A DNA stretch of 64,000 bases from an uncultured Candidatus Saccharibacteria bacterium (GCA_964630525.1 CAZVUY010000002.1:99693-163692), one strand, 5' to 3'; counted from the first letter of the stretch, positions 1 through 6,855 are shown. Made by a program: numbers and translations. The notes: generated by a model not told the origin, from the sequence alone.

Positions 1-61
1 TATTGCGGACGCCTACAGTAAATGGTCGAATAATTTCAAGGTAAGAGATCTGAAAAATATC

Positions 62-577
62 TTGATAATAGAATCAGTAGTTTTTCGAATGAACCAATCA
101 ATACCTTCAGGCGATTCTAAGAAGTTTTTAAGGATGTTAGAAGCAGCTATTTTACAACTAGAGAATTATTTCGAAGCAAGTATAAGAGACAAACACGGGT
201 GTTTTTCTTCTGATCCGATAGTAAGCACAAGTATTAGAAACTACGAGGATTTTCAAAAATTGAAAGACCTATACGTATCCAGAAAAATAATACCAATGAA
301 AGATTTTTGGGAAAATAACAAACAAAGTCTCGAGGCCCTACTCTCTTCTAAAAGTAATTATGATAAGTGCGGTAAAAGTGGCAAGGCAACTCTCGAAGTC
401 CTGGAAAAAATATTCTCCGAACCAGACCAATCGGAAAATTATAATAATAATCGTAAACTAGGCGACTCTATTGTGGCGGTAGATTGCCCTAAATCTTATA
501 CTCTTCTAACCACTGATCGTATATTTGAAGTTTTGTGTGGGTCGCTAGGGAAAAAACATATCGTTTTGGGTAAATAG
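62..577 (+). CDS. hypothetical protein; frame stays open to window start, so it may be 5'-partial
   Basis: ORF of 171 aa with no recognisable motifs; AT-rich; no stop in frame upstream to position 2. Confidence 0.3.
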   Translation: MIIESVVFRMNQSIPSGDSKKFLRMLEAAILQLENYFEASIRDKHGCFSSDPIVSTSIRNYEDFQKLKDLYVSRKIIPMKDFWENNKQSLEALLSSKSNYDKCGKSGKATLEVLEKIFSEPDQSENYNNNRKLGDSIVAVDCPKSYTLLTTDRIFEVLCGSLGKKHIVLGK

Positions 578-610
578 ATGTTACATATTTGGAAAGCAAT
601 TCATAATCTT

Positions 611-886
611 TTACTTGTCTAATACACGGCGTATTAAGATGGTAATGCCAATAGTGAGAATAATCACGCCAAACATTTTTTCATCAATATGGTAATCAGC
701 ATAACCACTTAAAGAAGGTAATTTTGGTAAACCTCCATTTTTTTCTGTTGGGCGAATTATATTATAAAAAAGAATCCATGATCCAATATTGATAAAAATA
801 TCCGGTAGGTATTTTTTGAGTAATTGTATTTTTTTCATATATTTTTTATTTTGCAAACCATTGCTTATACATAATAAACACAACAA
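611..886 (-). CDS. small membrane protein, about 2 TM, charged C-terminus (holin-like topology)
   Basis: Hydrophobic segments in translation; likely start at internal MKKIQLL. Confidence 0.25.
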   Translation of the reverse strand: MLCLLCISNGLQNKKYMKKIQLLKKYLPDIFINIGSWILFYNIIRPTEKNGGLPKLPSLSGYADYHIDEKMFGVIILTIGITILIRRVLDK

Positions 887-1157
887 AACCTGTAATCGGA
901 ATCAAAAATGTTATGACTGGATGGGTCAAAGAGGTATAGAGAAATAAAAAAAATATAGAACCAATAAAAACATAGAACAGTATGACAAGAACAATTATCC
1001 TAACCGCATGCCATTTTGAAGTTGGTTTTGTTCTAACCTCGGCAGGATTTATTATCCTTGAAGCAATCCTTTCTTCTGGGGTTAGATTTTCTTCCTTGAT
1101 CTCTTTCAACGCATCAATAACAAGCCCTTGCAATTCTTCTTTTCTCCTAGCTCTCAT
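846..1157 (-). CDS. small membrane protein
   Basis: Charged N-terminus followed by two hydrophobic helices. Confidence 0.25.
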   Translation of the reverse strand: MRARRKEELQGLVIDALKEIKEENLTPEERIASRIINPAEVRTKPTSKWHAVRIIVLVILFYVFIGSIFFLFLYTSLTHPVITFLIPITGFVVFIMYKQWFAK

Positions 1158-1482
1158 AGATCAGGGTTAGAGAGAGTAGATAAATCAGAGAGAAAGTAAT
1201 TCCCAAAGTAAGACAAATCAGATATAAAATACGATCCTTTTTGAGAATAGAAGTTTTGTAGGACCGGAAACCATTGATAATTACAGTGATGAAAAATAGA
1301 GGCGGAACCAGGTATATAAGCCAAAATGAAGAAGAGTGTATCTTAGCTCCTAAAGTGTATCCTAGAGCCAAATCTGGGCTTTTAGAGGCAATGTAAAACC
1401 ATAGTTTAGTAATGCCGGGGAATAGGACGAATGGCGCTAGAAGTAGAAGTACCAATTGAACCTGTTTATACGTTCTTTCCAT
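1147..1482 (-). CDS. membrane protein, about 4 TM
   Basis: Four hydrophobic stretches; contiguous with the two preceding small ORFs on the same strand. Confidence 0.25.
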   Translation of the reverse strand: MERTYKQVQLVLLLLAPFVLFPGITKLWFYIASKSPDLALGYTLGAKIHSSSFWLIYLVPPLFFITVIINGFRSYKTSILKKDRILYLICLTLGITFSLIYLLSLTLIYES

Positions 1483-1485
1483 GTT

Positions 1486-1622
1486 ATTGATCGTGATTTA
1501 CTAATAAACACAAAGCCCGCCGCTAGGAAGGTCCGAAGACCTCTATGGAGTTTCCCCCATAACACGATCAATGCCCTAACGACGGGTTCTCTATCATTGA
1601 TCGTGATTTACTTGGACCATGC
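1486..1622. repeat. pair of perfect 17-nt direct repeats ATTGATCGTGATTTACT (1486-1502 and 1606-1622) flanking a GC-richer ~100-nt spacer
   Basis: Read directly from the sequence; lies in the 5' part of the 1456 ORF, which is therefore probably not coding here. Confidence 0.8.
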
Positions 1623-1701
1623 CGTTTCCGGTTTAGGTCCTGCCCTCGCGGGCTATTCGGTTGTTATTGCAATAATACCAAGTTTGGAGGAATATAGGAA
1701 T

Positions 1702-2394
1702 ATGGGGCTGGATAGAGAAAAGTCAAAAAGAGTTCGGGCAATACAAGAAAAATACGGCAATCTGCTTTTGAAACTGGATGGATTTATAAGAACAAATAAT
1801 CTGATGCCAGTAGATCTATTTACTCAATACAAGGAGATTGTTGATGAATATAACGATTTGGACAAAAACGTCTCGGAAATACTTTCATCCGACCCGTCCT
1901 ACTCTCATTACTATACGGAATGGTGGCTTTATTCTTTAGAACTTCAAGAAATCACCTCGCCTAACAATTTCAAAAGAGATCAGAACACTAGATTGCAAAA
2001 TCTCATGGTTATAAAAAGCAATCTCGTAAAAAAGCTGCCGATATTTAGCAGATTTATTGAGAAAAATGTAGTCGGGAATGTTAGAAATATTGAAAGGTAC
2101 GATTTACAGAAAGGAGTTTTTTATTTCGGCAATTTGGAAATACTAATGGAAAGAGGTCTTGGCAGCATGATGGATACATTTTTGGAAGAACCGAGGCGAA
2201 TAAAGAATGGCAAACTAACACAAGGGGGCACTCCAATAAAAAGAACAGATTTAGAAAATGTCGGTGGCTATAAGAACGAAGCTTCATTTAGAAGGGCTTT
2301 AGGAAAATTACGCGAAATAATAAAAGAAAATAAGCTGCCAATGGCAATCTTAAATCCGCAGACAAATCACTACTTGCTTCAAATTGATGGGTAG
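1702..2394 (+). CDS. hypothetical protein; start placed at internal Met downstream of the direct repeats
   Basis: Long ORF 1456-2394; no recognisable domain. Confidence 0.3.
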   Translation: MGLDREKSKRVRAIQEKYGNLLLKLDGFIRTNNLMPVDLFTQYKEIVDEYNDLDKNVSEILSSDPSYSHYYTEWWLYSLELQEITSPNNFKRDQNTRLQNLMVIKSNLVKKLPIFSRFIEKNVVGNVRNIERYDLQKGVFYFGNLEILMERGLGSMMDTFLEEPRRIKNGKLTQGGTPIKRTDLENVGGYKNEASFRRALGKLREIIKENKLPMAILNPQTNHYLLQIDG

Positions 2395-2682
2395 GACTTT
2401 TTGATACTTTTTGATTTTGTAAAAACTATATAACTGAACATCTTTGTAAAAAATATCAATCAGCCCAATATACAAGGGCTTCTTAGACGAAGAAAATGGG
2501 TGTGTGAACTCGCAAGAAAACACACTTAACGACGAAGATATATCTCTGCTCGCAGACATTTTTGACTTGCTTGCGCAGGGAGATTTTGAAGACCAAAAAA
2601 TAAACATATCGGATCTCAACAAGGACTCTACCGGACCAGCCCCGGAAGGGTCCTTGTTGGTATCTGAATAAAAGCAAAATCT

Positions 2683-3054
2683 ATGTGGCTGGATAGATCT
2701 AAAAAAATATGTGAGAAAGGCAATTGGTTTCCAATACCTTATGAGTTGGTAGATGAGTATGCAAAAGAGGTAAAGACCGGCCCTTTTTCAATCTATATTT
2801 GTTTATTAAGGCATAGGAACGAAAAAGATGATTTTTCTTTCCCATCCCAAAAACTTATAGCCAAAAAACTCGGTATCAGTAACAGAACGGTAATCAAATA
2901 CTTAAAGGTTTTAGAACAGCTAGGGTGGATTAAGACCGCAAAAAAACGCGAACACAATGGGACCAGGAGGAAAAACCGCTACTTCTTTACCAAACCCAGT
3001 TTATGGAAAAAGCGATTAGACCAGGTGAAAGATAAGTCGCCTCCATGTGAATAA
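2683..3054 (+). CDS. winged-helix/HTH DNA-binding protein (replication-initiator or DnaD-like N-terminal type), element-associated
   Basis: Motif LIAKKLGISNRTVIKYLKVLEQLGWI typical of wHTH DNA-binding domains; basic C-terminus; sits directly upstream of the recombinase. Confidence 0.4.
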   Translation: MWLDRSKKICEKGNWFPIPYELVDEYAKEVKTGPFSIYICLLRHRNEKDDFSFPSQKLIAKKLGISNRTVIKYLKVLEQLGWIKTAKKREHNGTRRKNRYFFTKPSLWKKRLDQVKDKSPPCE

Positions 3055-3124
3055 TATTCACCTACATTGGTGACGGATATTCACTGTAAATATATAAATT
3101 ATAAAAATATAAAAAATAAATAAT

Positions 3125-4855
3125 ATGGAAACTTCTACAAAAACAAGCAACAATGATAAAATAATTGAAATGAATAACAAAGCAGTAATTTATTGCAGAG
3201 TATCATCCAAAGAGCAGGAAGAAACCGGCTATTCATTGCCGGCACAGGAAAAACTACTTACTGAATATGCTCAAAAAAGAGGTTTGGATATAGTAAAGAT
3301 ATTTTCTATATCTGAATCAGCAAGTGGTGCAAAGCAGCGGCAAGTATTCTATGAAATGATGAGCTTTTTGGGGAATAAAAACATCCCTCATCTGTTATGC
3401 GAAAAAGTAGATCGCATTACTCGTAATATGAAAGATGCGGTAGTAATAAATGATTGGATTGAAGATGATGCAGAAAGACAAATCCACTTCATAAAACAGA
3501 ATCTTGTAATTCATAAGAATGCAAAGTCAGACGAGAAGTTTCGCTGGGATATTGAAATTGTCCTAGCCAAAAAATATATCGCAAACCTATCGGAGGAAGT
3601 GAAAAAAGGACAAGCAGAAAAAATTAGGCAGGGATGGCTACCAACAAGACCACCCATCGGGTATAGGACTGTCGGAGAAAAAGGCCATAAAACTCATGTG
3701 ATTGATGAAAATACAGCTCCACTCATAAGGAAAGCTTTTGAGTTGTATGCCACTGGCAATTATTCTATGAAGCGACTAGCTGATGAGTTGTATAAAGACG
3801 GCCTCCGAACGAAATTAGGAAAGAAGCCGGCCAAAAGCAGGATTGAAGATATTCTCAAAGAGCCATTTTATTATGGTGCGATCAGGTGGAATGATGTGCT
3901 TCACAACAATGGCGCCCATAAGCCGATTATAACCAAAGAGTTGTTTGATAAGGTTACAGAGGTCCGGACAAGGGGTGATACTCCAAAATATCAGAGGCAT
4001 CAGTTCACCTTTCGTAAACTTCTAAGATGCAAGGAGTGTGATGGCACGATCACGGCCGAGATTCAAAAAGGAATTATTTACTATCACTGCACTCATTACA
4101 AAGGTTGCACTCAAAATAAATACACCCCAGAGAAGCAAATAGAGGAAAAATTATTAGGTGTATTTAAGTTTTTTGAGAATATAACTCCGGGAGAGGCAGA
4201 GCGTATCAAGGATAAAATAAAGGCCAATCACGCTGTTGAGATTGAATACAAGGAAAACACCATAAAGTCCCTCAACGAGCGGTATAGCCACTTACAGAGG
4301 CGCGTAGACCAGTTATATGACGATAGGTTGGACCATATAATCACCAACGAGCATTGGGAGAGAAAGCAGAAGGAGATAAACGACGAGCAGGCAGTAATCA
4401 GAGATCAGTTGGCCCAACTCAAAAGTGAGGAAACGAAATATTTTGAAATCTGGCTCAATATCTTGGACCTTGCTAGGAGGGCAAGAGAGATATACCAAAA
4501 GAGAAGCCCGGAACAGCGTAGGACCCTTATAAAGTATATTTTTCAAACCCTTATGCTAAAAGATGGAGAAACCGAATCCACCCTAAAGCCGACTATTGAA
4601 AAAATAGCCAAAAGAGTGCAACAGAAGCTAGATCAAGAAAAGATTTTCGAACAGACACAAAAAACCGCTAAAAGCACTGCTTCTAGCGACTCTTTGCGTT
4701 CTTCAAAACCAAATAATCCGTTAGAACTTTCGGAGGGTCAAAATAATTTTCGAACCTCAAAAAAGCTCTCTGTTAAGGCACGACACAGTGATTTGCACAC
4801 TGCTTCACGCCCTCTGCTCCGGGAGCAGGGATCGAACCTGCGACCAATCGCTTAA
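3125..4855 (+). CDS. large serine recombinase (resolvase/invertase catalytic domain, recombinase domain, zinc ribbon, coiled coil)
   Basis: N-terminal VIYCRVSSKEQ with catalytic Ser; recombinase domain; zinc ribbon CKECDG...HC; long coiled-coil tail; the ORF ends inside tRNA-Asn. Confidence 0.85.
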   Translation: METSTKTSNNDKIIEMNNKAVIYCRVSSKEQEETGYSLPAQEKLLTEYAQKRGLDIVKIFSISESASGAKQRQVFYEMMSFLGNKNIPHLLCEKVDRITRNMKDAVVINDWIEDDAERQIHFIKQNLVIHKNAKSDEKFRWDIEIVLAKKYIANLSEEVKKGQAEKIRQGWLPTRPPIGYRTVGEKGHKTHVIDENTAPLIRKAFELYATGNYSMKRLADELYKDGLRTKLGKKPAKSRIEDILKEPFYYGAIRWNDVLHNNGAHKPIITKELFDKVTEVRTRGDTPKYQRHQFTFRKLLRCKECDGTITAEIQKGIIYYHCTHYKGCTQNKYTPEKQIEEKLLGVFKFFENITPGEAERIKDKIKANHAVEIEYKENTIKSLNERYSHLQRRVDQLYDDRLDHIITNEHWERKQKEINDEQAVIRDQLAQLKSEETKYFEIWLNILDLARRAREIYQKRSPEQRRTLIKYIFQTLMLKDGETESTLKPTIEKIAKRVQQKLDQEKIFEQTQKTAKSTASSDSLRSSKPNNPLELSEGQNNFRTSKKLSVKARHSDLHTASRPLLREQGSNLRPIA

Positions 4856-4888
4856 CAGGCGACTGCTCTACCGCTGAGCTATCCCGGA
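4817..4888 (-). tRNA. tRNA-Asn (anticodon GTT)
   Basis: Manually folded cloverleaf: perfect 7-bp acceptor TCCGGGA/TCCCGGA, D-arm GCTC-AGCGGTA-GAGC, anticodon loop CTGTTAA, T-loop TTCGATC. Confidence 0.85.
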
Positions 4889-5094
4889 ATATTTAAATTG
4901 TAACAAACATTTTTCCGTGATATCTATCCTTGAGTAGTCGCCTGGACAGGCGCCCTCCTTACAGGAGCTGTCTACTCATTGGATTTTTTGCTTTGCGAAG
5001 CTTGCAAAAATTCTCAATGAGTCTTGCAGTTGGGTCCCATCCCAACTTCACTCCACCGCTGAGCTATCCCGGAATATTTAAATTTGTAACAAAG
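4871..5094. repeat. ~38-bp direct repeat (4871-4908 and 5056-5094, one mismatch) duplicating the tRNA-Asn 5' end plus upstream flank; the second copy is a degenerate tRNA fragment
   Basis: CCGCTGAGCTATCCCGGAATATTTAAAT(T)GTAACAAA appears twice about 185 bp apart. Confidence 0.8.
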
Positions 5095-5292
5095 GTTCTC
5101 CTTTTTAAGAGAACAGGTTCATTCTACCAAAGATTTTGGGCTGTGCAATCTAAAAAATATTCGGTATTGACACAAGCCGATTAAGTAGTGTATAATTGGG
5201 GAGAATATTTTGTGGTAGGGTTGGGGATAGAGCGATGCGTTGCTTTGTACCCCTGTTATAATAGAAACATTAAGATACTAGCTAAAATTTAA

Positions 5293-5949: not shown

Positions 5950-6855
5950 TTGTTAAAATCAACGAGCAGCTTATATAAGCTGCTCGTTGATTTTTTTATG
6001 AAATTTAGTCTGAAAACAAATCTTTATCCGATCATAGCGCTTGTTTTGGTAGCTGCTTGCGCAGCAGTTGGTTACTTCTACTACCAAAACTCTTTAGAAC
6101 TCACTTCGACCAAAGTAGAGTTGCTCAACACGAAAACTGATCTGGATCAGCTGGTCGAACAAAACATGATTTTGCAAACAGAGCTCGAAGCTGAAAAATA
6201 CAAAAACAGTATTTTTAGCGGCCAGATTAGTGAAATCGCTGGAACAGTGGGGACACTCAATAAGTTGGCTAAGACCGACCGAGAACTGTTGCAAAAATAT
6301 TCGAAGGTTTATTTTTTGAATGAACACTATGTACCTGATGACCTGGTAGAGATTCCACCTGATTATATCTATGAGAGTGGCAAAAAAATTCAATTTCATG
6401 CCAAGGCTTATCCTTATTTACAAAAACTTTTGGTTGATGCCAAGAACGCTGGTTTTGAAATTAAAATTATATCCGCCTACCGTTCTTTTGGTGAACAAGG
6501 GGTATTAAAAAATGGGTATATGGTCAACTATGGCAGCGGTGCCAATCGTTTTTCGGCCGACCAAGGTTATTCTGAACACCAGCTGGGGACCGCGCTCGAT
6601 TTCACTACCCCAGCACTAGGAGCCGGTTTTACTAGTTTCGCCAAAACCGAGGCTTATAGCTGGCTGCAAGCCAATGCGTACAAATATGGTTTCGTTATCT
6701 CCTACCCAGAAGACAATACTTATTATCAATTTGAACCTTGGCATTGGCGTTTCGTCGGGGTGAGTCTCGCCACGATGCTTCATGAGGAAAAACAAAACTT
6801 TTATGACGTTCTTCAGAGCAAAATAGATGCTTATTTGATCAAGATTTTTGATTAA
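5950..6855 (+). CDS. membrane-anchored M15B (VanY-type) D-alanyl-D-alanine carboxypeptidase
   Basis: N-terminal TM and coiled coil; M15 motifs ISAYRSFGEQ, SEHQLGTALDF, EPWHWRF. Confidence 0.8.
   Translation: MLKSTSSLYKLLVDFFMKFSLKTNLYPIIALVLVAACAAVGYFYYQNSLELTSTKVELLNTKTDLDQLVEQNMILQTELEAEKYKNSIFSGQISEIAGTVGTLNKLAKTDRELLQKYSKVYFLNEHYVPDDLVEIPPDYIYESGKKIQFHAKAYPYLQKLLVDAKNAGFEIKIISAYRSFGEQGVLKNGYMVNYGSGANRFSADQGYSEHQLGTALDFTTPALGAGFTSFAKTEAYSWLQANAYKYGFVISYPEDNTYYQFEPWHWRFVGVSLATMLHEEKQNFYDVLQSKIDAYLIKIFD

Follow-up and report, generated by a model that had tools for sequence, protein, structure and literature searches.

Introduction

Large serine recombinases (LSRs) do not require long identity between the attachment (att) sites that they join. 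In the integrases of SSV1-type fuselloviruses, which are archaeal tyrosine recombinases, the element's own site, attP, lies inside the int gene, and integration splits that gene. For the insertion of large DNA, serine integrases are the tools of choice, and the view has been that they avoid tRNA genes. Among 2,168 genomes surveyed, they used tRNA genes in 14 of 297 cases, a usage that the survey called not previously reported (PMC7192596). Bacteria of the candidate phyla radiation (CPR) are among the reported host phyla of inoviruses (PMC6813254), and the LOOT RNA (RF03000), a family derived from metagenomes, is typed by Rfam as a small-RNA gene (PMC7779021).

Here we analyzed a stretch of 64,000 nucleotides from an uncultured Candidatus Saccharibacteria bacterium (GCA_964630525.1 CAZVUY010000002.1:99693-163692; hereafter the window, numbered from its first letter). 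The start of the window is very probably the right-hand half of a mobile island of about 9.65 kb, inserted by an LSR at the 3′ end of a tRNA-Asn gene. An integrated element with an LSR beside the tRNA-Asn 3′ end had been proposed from the window sequence alone (the original prediction), and the left end, the empty site, the alternative island and the grouping of the recombinase reported below support that proposal. The tRNA-adjacent layout holds for this locus and, as a refinement, proved to be a trait of the whole LSR clade rather than a single case.

A large serine recombinase that ends inside tRNA-Asn

The recombinase gene (3125..4855, plus strand) encodes 576 amino acids (aa), in which all three LSR domains score above the curated Pfam cut-offs: Resolvase (PF00239, E 4e-21), Recombinase (PF07508, E 6e-17) and Zn_ribbon_recom (PF13408, 26.5 bits against a cut-off of 25.3). 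Residues Y23, R25, V26 and S27 of the catalytic motif YCRVSS, together with D96, R97 and R100, are invariant in 24 family members, as are the zinc-ribbon cysteines C302, C305, C322 and C328 in the alignment of these relatives. By sequence, the nearest solved proteins are the catalytic domain of the TP901-1 integrase (E 2e-8) and the C-terminal region of the A118 integrase (E 1e-5). An AlphaFold model has a mean predicted local distance difference test score (pLDDT) of 65, with the catalytic, recombinase and coiled-coil parts confident; the coiled coil consists of two long helices (370-402 and 408-432, pLDDT 87-91), residues 501-576 are predicted to be disordered, and the overall predicted template modelling score is 0.30, a low value of the sort that a flexible protein of several domains is expected to give. 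The 27 best fold matches in the PDB are all serine recombinases, and 22 of them are LSR integrases; they include full-length LSR-att complexes (9dxd, 9y66, phiC31 9rah and Bxb1 9iu2), matched at E 1e-17 to 3e-13 over 513-554 columns. The protein is an LSR distant from the characterised ones, and fold and sequence place it, as the proposed family comparison was meant to reveal, with the phiC31, Bxb1, A118 and TP901-1 integrases and not with small housekeeping resolvases.

The integration target is an intact tRNA-Asn(GTT) gene on the minus strand, located at 4816..4888 by ARAGORN and at 4817..4888 by Rfam (70.5 bits). The convergent open reading frame (ORF) of the LSR enters the 3′ part of this gene by 40 nt including the stop codon in ARAGORN coordinates, or by 39 nt in Rfam coordinates, which confirms the overlap that had been noted before. 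LSR residues 565-576 and the stop codon are therefore encoded by the antisense strand of tRNA-Asn, and the TAA stop (4853-4855) lies opposite bases of the anticodon loop, as their reverse complement. Directly behind the tRNA in its own sense, and within the 3′ coding end of the LSR gene, lies a strong hairpin (4775..4813, minus strand; -23.6 kcal/mol, z -2.6). A hairpin behind the tRNA, often with a T-run, occurs at the same place in most relatives. The hairpin in the window probably belongs to the att arm on the element side, acts as a terminator-like barrier, or does both.

The left end, an empty site and an alternative island

The left end of the element had been placed outside the window, and it is indeed exposed in a public 22-kb Logan contig (SRR13355620_4179, here L001) found by exact-protein look-up of the LSR. 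Over a shared 5,984 nt the contig and the window do not differ, and the contig reaches 6,876 nt (6.9 kb) farther left, so that a window position equals the L001 position minus 6876. Going leftward past the cargo, L001 contains a 196-nt segment (X), then a 17-nt copy of the tRNA 3′ end, then a hairpin with a T6 run, and then an AAA_33 kinase-like gene. Read in the tRNA sense, the hairpin and T-run (CGCCCTTATAGGGCG followed by T6) look like the terminator native to this tRNA. Contigs from other samples, reached through homologues of the AAA_33 flank gene, were used to compare alleles of the site.

Contig L006 (SRR12487014) comes from the same species, with 97.4% identity to L001 in the AAA_33 region and 99% in X. 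In the tRNA sense it reads ...CCCTGCTCCCGGAGC^CACTGACACAAACC... (a caret marks a junction here and below): X follows the tRNA end directly, without the intervening 9.65 kb. The far junction of L001, at 2043-2046, reads ...GTGCGAGC^CACTGACAC, and the L006 join (...CCCGGAGC^CACTGACAC) is exactly what results from combining the left side of attR with the right side of attL of L001. Judged by this sequence match, L006 is an empty site of the kind that comparison with related genomes had been expected to reveal. In contig L005 (ERR14821854), which represents another strain, a different island of 7.5 kb begins at the same base (...CCCGGAGC^CAGTTAGGG). It encodes a 516-aa protein with all three LSR domains, 29% identical to the LSR of the window and ending in the same tRNA-encoded tail LREQGSNLRPIA (...WLREQGSNLRPIA), and it carries type I restriction-modification genes without any cargo in common with the window element. 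Its far junction, ...GAG^GGAGCAGCCAACATG-terminator, lacks both X and the 17-nt block. Two contigs from a related species (L007 and L008) have tRNA-Asn, three unrelated genes and then AAA_33, with no LSR at the site. Occupied, empty and differently occupied sites thus coexist among contigs whose flanks are 97-100% identical, so that the site is polymorphic and a hot spot; the block does not sit in a fixed core context, nor does its recombinase group with housekeeping resolvases.

Comparison of the three alleles locates the right junction to the base. L001, L005 and L006 are identical through ...CCCGGAGC and diverge directly thereafter, which sets the attR core at 4816..4819 (GCTC on the plus strand, GAGC in the tRNA sense), covering the last acceptor-stem bases, the discriminator and one further base. 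The far junction has the same 4 nt, GAGC, and the two junctions share nothing longer. A repeat of the tRNA-Asn 3′ end had been anticipated at the left, and a 17-nt copy is present there, but the junctions themselves have just these 4 nt in common and no long tRNA repeat. The crossover probably took place in GAGC rather than in the 17-nt repeat. With these boundaries, the right-hand half of the element occupies window positions 1..4815, and the whole element, about 9,645 nt, spans window positions -4829..4815 (L001 2047..11691). Composition agrees with this extent: GC content is 37.2% (0.372) over 1-4815 against 0.431 over 5300-64000, lower than in every 4.8-kb sliding window elsewhere (n = 108, mean 0.433, sd 0.016, minimum 0.407), and the previously described low-GC first block is thereby confirmed.

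After insertion the tRNA is complete through the discriminator base, and only its trailer differs, beginning CCA in L005 and L006 and CAG in the window. In the empty and the alternatively filled alleles a CCA is encoded after the tRNA (GGAG-CCA, L005 and L006 36-42), and the window has CAG in the corresponding trailer (4814-4817); insertion of the element therefore removes the encoded CCA end.

Insertions of three kinds were observed at this tRNA 3′ end across the contigs: segment X with the 17-nt copy (L001 1834-2042, equal to window -5042..-4834; L006 40-248), a 1.7-kb insert without a recombinase in one strain (L006 249-1990), and the 7.5-kb island with the 29%-identical LSR and type I restriction-modification genes (L005 40-7604).

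tRNA association across the recombinase family

A protein search returned 1,547 relatives of the LSR at E < 1e-10, and the few that carry a source name come from Patescibacteria-type genomes. Scanning one genome per species (GTDB) gave 80 loci, mostly from Patescibacteria, with LSRs 42-89% identical to that of the window. The LSR ORF ends inside a convergent tRNA in 42 of the 80, and the tRNAs entered are mostly Asn (32 loci), followed by Gln (4), Tyr (2) and Val, Leu, Ser and Arg (1 each); overlaps of 40 nt or 13-15 nt are the commonest. At three further loci (L012, L013 and L016), the LSR abuts a tRNA-Asn gene that is split by a group I intron and was missed by ARAGORN. Two IMG/VR provirus contigs also end in ...GAGC^ of a tRNA 3′ end. 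Such tRNA ending in most relatives across CPR bacteria is unusual for this enzyme type, and our literature searches returned no later description of a tRNA-targeting LSR clade of this kind, nor of the genomic context of LOOT described below.

The C-termini of the family are conserved through ...NNFRTSKK.SVKARH...SRPLL and become context-dependent beyond it, ending in RR, RG or REQGSNLRPIA before the stop codon. Since conservation ends at SRPLL, it ends at CTGCTC, exactly where the three alleles diverge.

The group I introns lie on the minus strand at L012 7690-7990, L013 7699-7939 and L016 7681-7919, and split the anticodon loop as CCTGT-intron-TAAGCG. Co-occurring intron-containing and intron-less alleles probably explain why the Logan contigs L003-L006 all break at this point. 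A crossover in the anticodon loop, considered because several Logan contigs break there, was set aside, as such tRNA-Asn alleles explain the breaks better.

A model for integration

We propose that the element came to lie directly behind the discriminator base of the one tRNA-Asn(GTT) gene in this Patescibacteria genome through the following reaction. The LSR would recombine a short attP, located within the final conserved codons of the LSR gene itself (...TCA CGC CCT CTG CTC, encoding SRPLL), with an attB at the tRNA 3′ end, and strand exchange would occur within the shared GAGC, leaving the tRNA intact. In the integrated state the LSR gene would read into the antisense strand of the tRNA, and the reaction would exchange a non-conserved, disordered tail of about 36 residues in the free form for 12 tRNA-encoded residues in the 576-aa form; the circular junction that we predict encodes a free-form LSR of 600 aa. 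Written in the recombinase sense, the predicted attP is ...CTGCTTCACGCCCTCTGCTC^GCACTGGCTGACGATTTTAGAACG..., and the predicted attB in the tRNA sense is ...GGTTCGATCCCTGCTCCCGGAGC^CACTGACACAAACCGTTTTGCC.... In this attP, read directly from the sequences, an inverted repeat, TCA(C)GCC...GGCTGA, has GCTC at its centre. If the crossover instead lay in the 17-nt repeat, attP would read ...TTCACGCCCT-CTGCTCCGGGAGCAGGG-GGTATCTCCCTCGACTC..., with the repeat counted once.

Gene content of the element

The genes previously described for this block, namely small hydrophobic proteins, a hypothetical protein, a winged-helix DNA-binding protein and the 576-aa LSR, were all recovered; a 55-aa ORF (2504..2671), a LOOT RNA (1528..1639, minus strand) and a repeat of the tRNA 5′ fragment (5051-5084) had been missed. 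The ORF at 62..577 (plus strand) is only part of a gene: it encodes the C-terminal portion of a 282-aa cargo protein, whose reading frame begins left of the window (gene call L001 6605..7453). This protein has no significant Pfam, PHROG or PADLOC match and no Walker A motif. Downstream of the LOOT RNA, three consecutive genes (611..1482, minus strand) encode small hydrophobic membrane proteins of 75, 103 and 111 aa, and the 111-aa protein, whose ORF adjoins LOOT, has a hydrophobic N-terminus. The operon leading to the LSR starts with a hypothetical gene (1804..2394, plus strand). It had been described as a 312-aa ORF (1456..2394), and the gene stands while its length does not: a product of 196 aa, starting at the ATG at 1804 as in the public gene call, is likelier, because the LOOT RNA on the opposite strand occupies the upstream part of the longer ORF (1456-1803). 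The single homologue of the 196-aa protein is in L012, in the same placement relative to LOOT.

Between this gene and the LSR lie two small genes on the plus strand. The 55-aa ORF (2504..2671), upstream of the winged-helix and LSR genes, encodes an acidic protein with the motif ...LADIFDLLAQGDFED... and matches a small-ORF family in at least 15 related loci (E down to 9e-8), whose members always lie upstream of an LSR on the same strand; its product is a candidate accessory or directionality factor. The 123-aa winged-helix protein (2683..3054) matches Pfam HTH_36 (E 1e-12) and DnaD_N (E 2e-6) as well as PHROG replication-initiator families (E 3e-12), and thus resembles, by sequence, the DNA-binding N-terminal domain of replication initiators. 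A homologue lies upstream of the LSR, at a median distance of 121 nt, in 17 other related loci (an 18-member cluster with this element). Clustering of the upstream ORFs of all loci identified a conserved module on the LSR strand, composed of a small acidic protein, a winged-helix protein and the LSR, to which primase or helicase-like genes are added in some relatives. Apart from these two proteins next to the LSR, the cargo is nearly unique to this element, whereas the LSR family is widespread.

Beyond the window, the left cargo in L001 comprises the 282-aa protein and further proteins of 208, 209, 105 and 440 aa, all without assigned function, a 125-aa helix-turn-helix protein, and a 313-aa DUF4268 protein (L001 4287-5228, minus strand; window -2589..-1648). 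The last matches PADLOC PDC-S11 (E 2e-117) and is a candidate defence gene. The 440-aa ORF (L001 2607-3929, minus strand; window -4269..-2947) has 54% GC inside an element of otherwise about 36.5% GC and may be a later acquisition; Pfam, PHROG and PADLOC scans gave no match for it. Defence-type cargo was also seen in other islands at or near such sites: restriction-modification genes in L005, and AbiEii with HsdM in L009.

Across all cargo, the Pfam, PHROG and PADLOC scans recognised solely the PDC-S11 candidate defence gene and helix-turn-helix domains. There were no PHROG matches to structural or morphogenesis families, and a match named 'terminase small subunit' corresponds to a 30-residue helix-turn-helix stretch below the Pfam cut-off. 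Pfam gave no hits to relaxases, coupling proteins or type IV secretion, the T4SS-DNA_transf match (E 0.022, 14 bits) being below threshold and without a P-loop. No protein with a Walker A or P-loop motif occurs in the element, and none is similar to proteins of the inovirus-like IMG/VR relatives (L091-L093). We therefore classified the locus as an integrative element with a candidate defence gene, and not as a phage, an inovirus or a conjugative element.

LOOT RNA in LSR elements

The LOOT RNA (1528..1639, minus strand) is the only non-tRNA Rfam family in the 64 kb. It scores 53.1 bits against a gathering score of 46.4 over model positions 1-121, with a fold z-score of -4.8, and together with a 26-nt 3′ extension it occupies 1502..1639. 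Of 9 LSR-bearing loci searched with Rfam, 6 have LOOT. Seven copies were used to build a covariance model, which gave 40 hits in 1 Mb; these are concentrated upstream of LSR genes, with 38 in 398 kb there against 1 in 365 kb downstream. Among the 62 loci whose upstream flank spans 4 kb or more, 36 have a copy. The median position of the copies is 1.9 kb upstream of the LSR, and 34 of the 38 are on the strand opposite to it; examples are L013 312-431, L022 4948-5069 and L014 3922-4041. The inovirus-like relatives, L005 and L009 lack LOOT. By its distribution, LOOT RNA is a regular component of these LSR elements.

A 3′ extension that the Rfam model omits (for example CCTGTGGTGGGCTTTTTGT; CCYGTGGYGGGCTTTTTGT-like) follows each LOOT copy. 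In the window it lies at 1502-1527 (minus strand), pairs with the central loop of LOOT at about 1574-1596, and ends in a T-rich run. The duplex of loop and tail has a median of -28 kcal/mol and z < -2 in 36 of 38 copies, its paired sequences covary, and a T-run is present in 30 of 38. An ORF of at least 40 aa starts no more than 250 nt downstream of 36 of the 38 hits, and 35 of these ORFs encode a hydrophobic N-terminus. Such an arrangement is suggestive of a leader or attenuator, a pseudoknot, or an RNA that carries its own terminator.

Alternative explanations

The same junctions could be read as those of a slightly larger island of the same kind, about 9.86 kb, with the 17-nt direct repeat CTGCTCCGGGAGCAGGG at its two ends (window 4814-4830, L001 1834-1850). 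The element would then include segment X, and the crossover would fall within the repeated tRNA 3′ end, as in classical tRNA islands. Its attraction is that a 17/18 match to the tRNA 3′ end, with a chance expectation of about 5e-4 by our own estimate, adjoins the apparent native tRNA terminator. However, the LSR element is missing from L006 although both X and the 17-nt block are there and the tRNA end passes exactly into X, while L005 has neither X nor the block and yet carries an LSR at the same GGAGC^ point; LSRs, moreover, need no long identity between their att sites. The start of X resembles the 3′ end of an LSR gene of the L005 type (..QWLREQG), and for this reason X and the 17-nt block are best read as the scar of an older insertion. 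The use of the 17-nt copy as attL was accordingly dropped as the main model, as L006 and L005 diverge exactly after GGAGC, and we consider the larger island quite unlikely. A mobile island ending at GAGC nonetheless has several observations to its disadvantage. The 17-nt copy (CCCTGCTCCCGGAGCAG) lies only 196 nt past the proposed left junction and could be the true attL; the outer half-sites of attB would differ between the two LSRs (segment X in one case, the native trailer in the other), calling for tolerance on that side; and the L006 contig begins inside the tRNA, so that the empty site comes from one contig of one sample. Exact-match scans of IMG/VR found neither of the two candidate attP or circular junctions, a recombination directionality factor was not identified with confidence, and replication, transfer and packaging functions were not recognisable in the cargo in the Pfam, PHROG and PADLOC scans or in comparison with the inovirus-like relatives.

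Some of these observations would also suit a fixed, immobile remnant, that is, a prophage or plasmid in decay, or a recombinase that was domesticated, passed on by vertical descent beside tRNA-Asn: packaging, replication-enzyme and transfer genes are not recognised, the attP junction was not found, and the GC-rich (0.54) 440-aa ORF looks like a later insertion. This explanation is unlikely, given that the LSR ORF is intact with all its catalytic residues, that the three states of the site coexist between nearly identical flanks, and that a nearly unique cargo set against a widespread LSR family fits mobility with cargo turnover; the element may well be active at present. A filamentous (inovirus-like) or other prophage of a CPR bacterium is more improbable still. 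Relatives in IMG/VR, with a 42%-identical LSR, have a Zot/pI-type morphogenesis ATPase and a rolling-circle Rep beside the LSR at tRNA 3′ ends, and the three small membrane proteins of the window element could be coat-like, but the element has no Walker A protein, nothing like the inovirus proteins of L091-L093 and no structural or morphogenesis match, and those inovirus-like relatives are without LOOT RNA. A mobile, LSR-inserted island with its crossover in GAGC is therefore the explanation that we carry forward.

A structured segment upstream of tRNA-Asn

On the other side of the tRNA, a 34-nt direct repeat (4866-4899 and 5051-5084, 97% identical) comprises tRNA bases 1-24 and the region upstream of them. 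The 185 nt between the repeats are absent in L004 and present in a shortened form in L003. Within this segment, a 24-nt 5′ fragment of tRNA-Asn is fused to an RNA-like motif of four hairpins (4915..5074, minus strand). After the tRNA-like 5′ part, the order is ...GGTGGAGTGAG, hairpin 1, YGCAAGAC, hairpin 2, GKACAG, CTCCTGTAAGGAG and hairpin 4, and the copy in the window folds with z -2.0. The motif recurs in six other genomes (L010 1576-1700, L007 31-230, L029 7682-7790, L018 7700-7790, L012 11141-11204 and L052 12849-12930). It lies directly upstream of tRNA-Asn in four of the six (five with the window), where it opens with the tRNA 5′ sequence of its own genome, and elsewhere in the other two. 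Stem pairs show compensatory changes between copies (for example GTTGGG/CCCAAC, CTTGGG/CCCAAG, ATTGGG/CCCAAT, AAATGG/CCATTT). No Rfam match was found in six genomes, and IMG/VR gave none. We tested the segment as a degenerating piece of tRNA, as what is left of a group I intron and as a member of a known RNA family, and rejected these readings, with no Rfam or IMG/VR match and no copy-to-copy conservation of a hammerhead core; the segment is neither a simple pseudogene nor part of the LSR element. It also contains, ahead of the functional tRNA, a promoter-like site (4897..4926, minus strand) with TAGATA and TACAAT separated by 18 nt and an extended TG, found by consensus scan only.

Farther into the flank, a perfect palindrome of 20+20 nt (AAAATCAACGAGCAGCTTAT/ATAAGCTGCTCGTTGATTTT) at window positions 5955-5994 lies between a PG_binding gene and a VanY-like gene and overlaps the annotated start of the latter.

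Discussion

Taken across the family, these observations permit a broader, tentative proposal. A clade of Patescibacteria LSRs may have evolved specificity for tRNA 3′ ends, mostly of tRNA-Asn, with attP in the last conserved codons of the recombinase gene itself and with a tail swap and a hairpin barrier behind the tRNA. Its LOOT-bearing subset could represent an undescribed type of capsid-less element, in which LOOT would act in cis as a terminator or antiterminator leader for envelope or secreted-protein genes and not as a free small RNA. If this is true, a clade that targets tRNA-Asn, and sometimes tRNA-Gln, tRNA-Tyr and others, would offer many enzyme and site pairs with near-universal landing sites, a way to study how an LSR family reads a tRNA gene, and a rare way into the mobile DNA and strain differences of uncultured CPR bacteria. 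The orphan LOOT RNA also gains its first genomic context, and an unannotated RNA motif beside tRNA-Asn is pointed out.

Among characterised enzymes, the serine integrases of A118/LI, TP901-1, phiC31 and Bxb1 are the closest in architecture. They share with the window LSR the catalytic domain, the recombinase domain and a zinc ribbon with an inserted coiled coil, the catalytic Ser, Arg and Asp, a gene at the edge of the element beside the att site, and, by the junctions proposed here, att sites with few bases in common. The window LSR differs from them in sequence, with 13-17% identity to full-length LSR structures and up to 23% in single-domain alignments, in its target, which is a tRNA 3′ end, and in the predicted position of attP inside its own 3′ coding end. 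In target choice, the locus is closer to the tRNA islands and prophages of tyrosine integrases (P4-like), where the insertion is likewise at the tRNA 3′ end, the integrase lies beside the tRNA, the tRNA is preserved, and tandem scars and alternative islands accumulate in hot-spot fashion. Here, however, the enzyme family and chemistry are different, the proposed junctions have 4 nt of identity where such islands have roughly 15-50 nt, and the element supplies no replacement for the 3′ part of the tRNA.

Placement of the recombination site inside the integrase coding sequence, with an altered gene product, recalls the SSV1-type integrases; unlike in those, just the non-conserved tail after SRPLL, predicted to be disordered, would be exchanged. 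The inovirus-like proviruses of IMG/VR have the same LSR family (42% identity), the tRNA junction ...GAGC^ and a hairpin with a T-run behind the tRNA, and are set apart by a pI/Zot ATPase and a rolling-circle Rep, which the window element lacks, whereas LOOT RNA is present in the latter. With respect to the known LOOT family, the window copy is a regular member that passes the Rfam gathering score over the full model; what is new is its genomic context, at the side of an LSR element and usually antisense to the recombinase, followed by a covarying stem with a T-run and then by a gene for a membrane or secreted protein.

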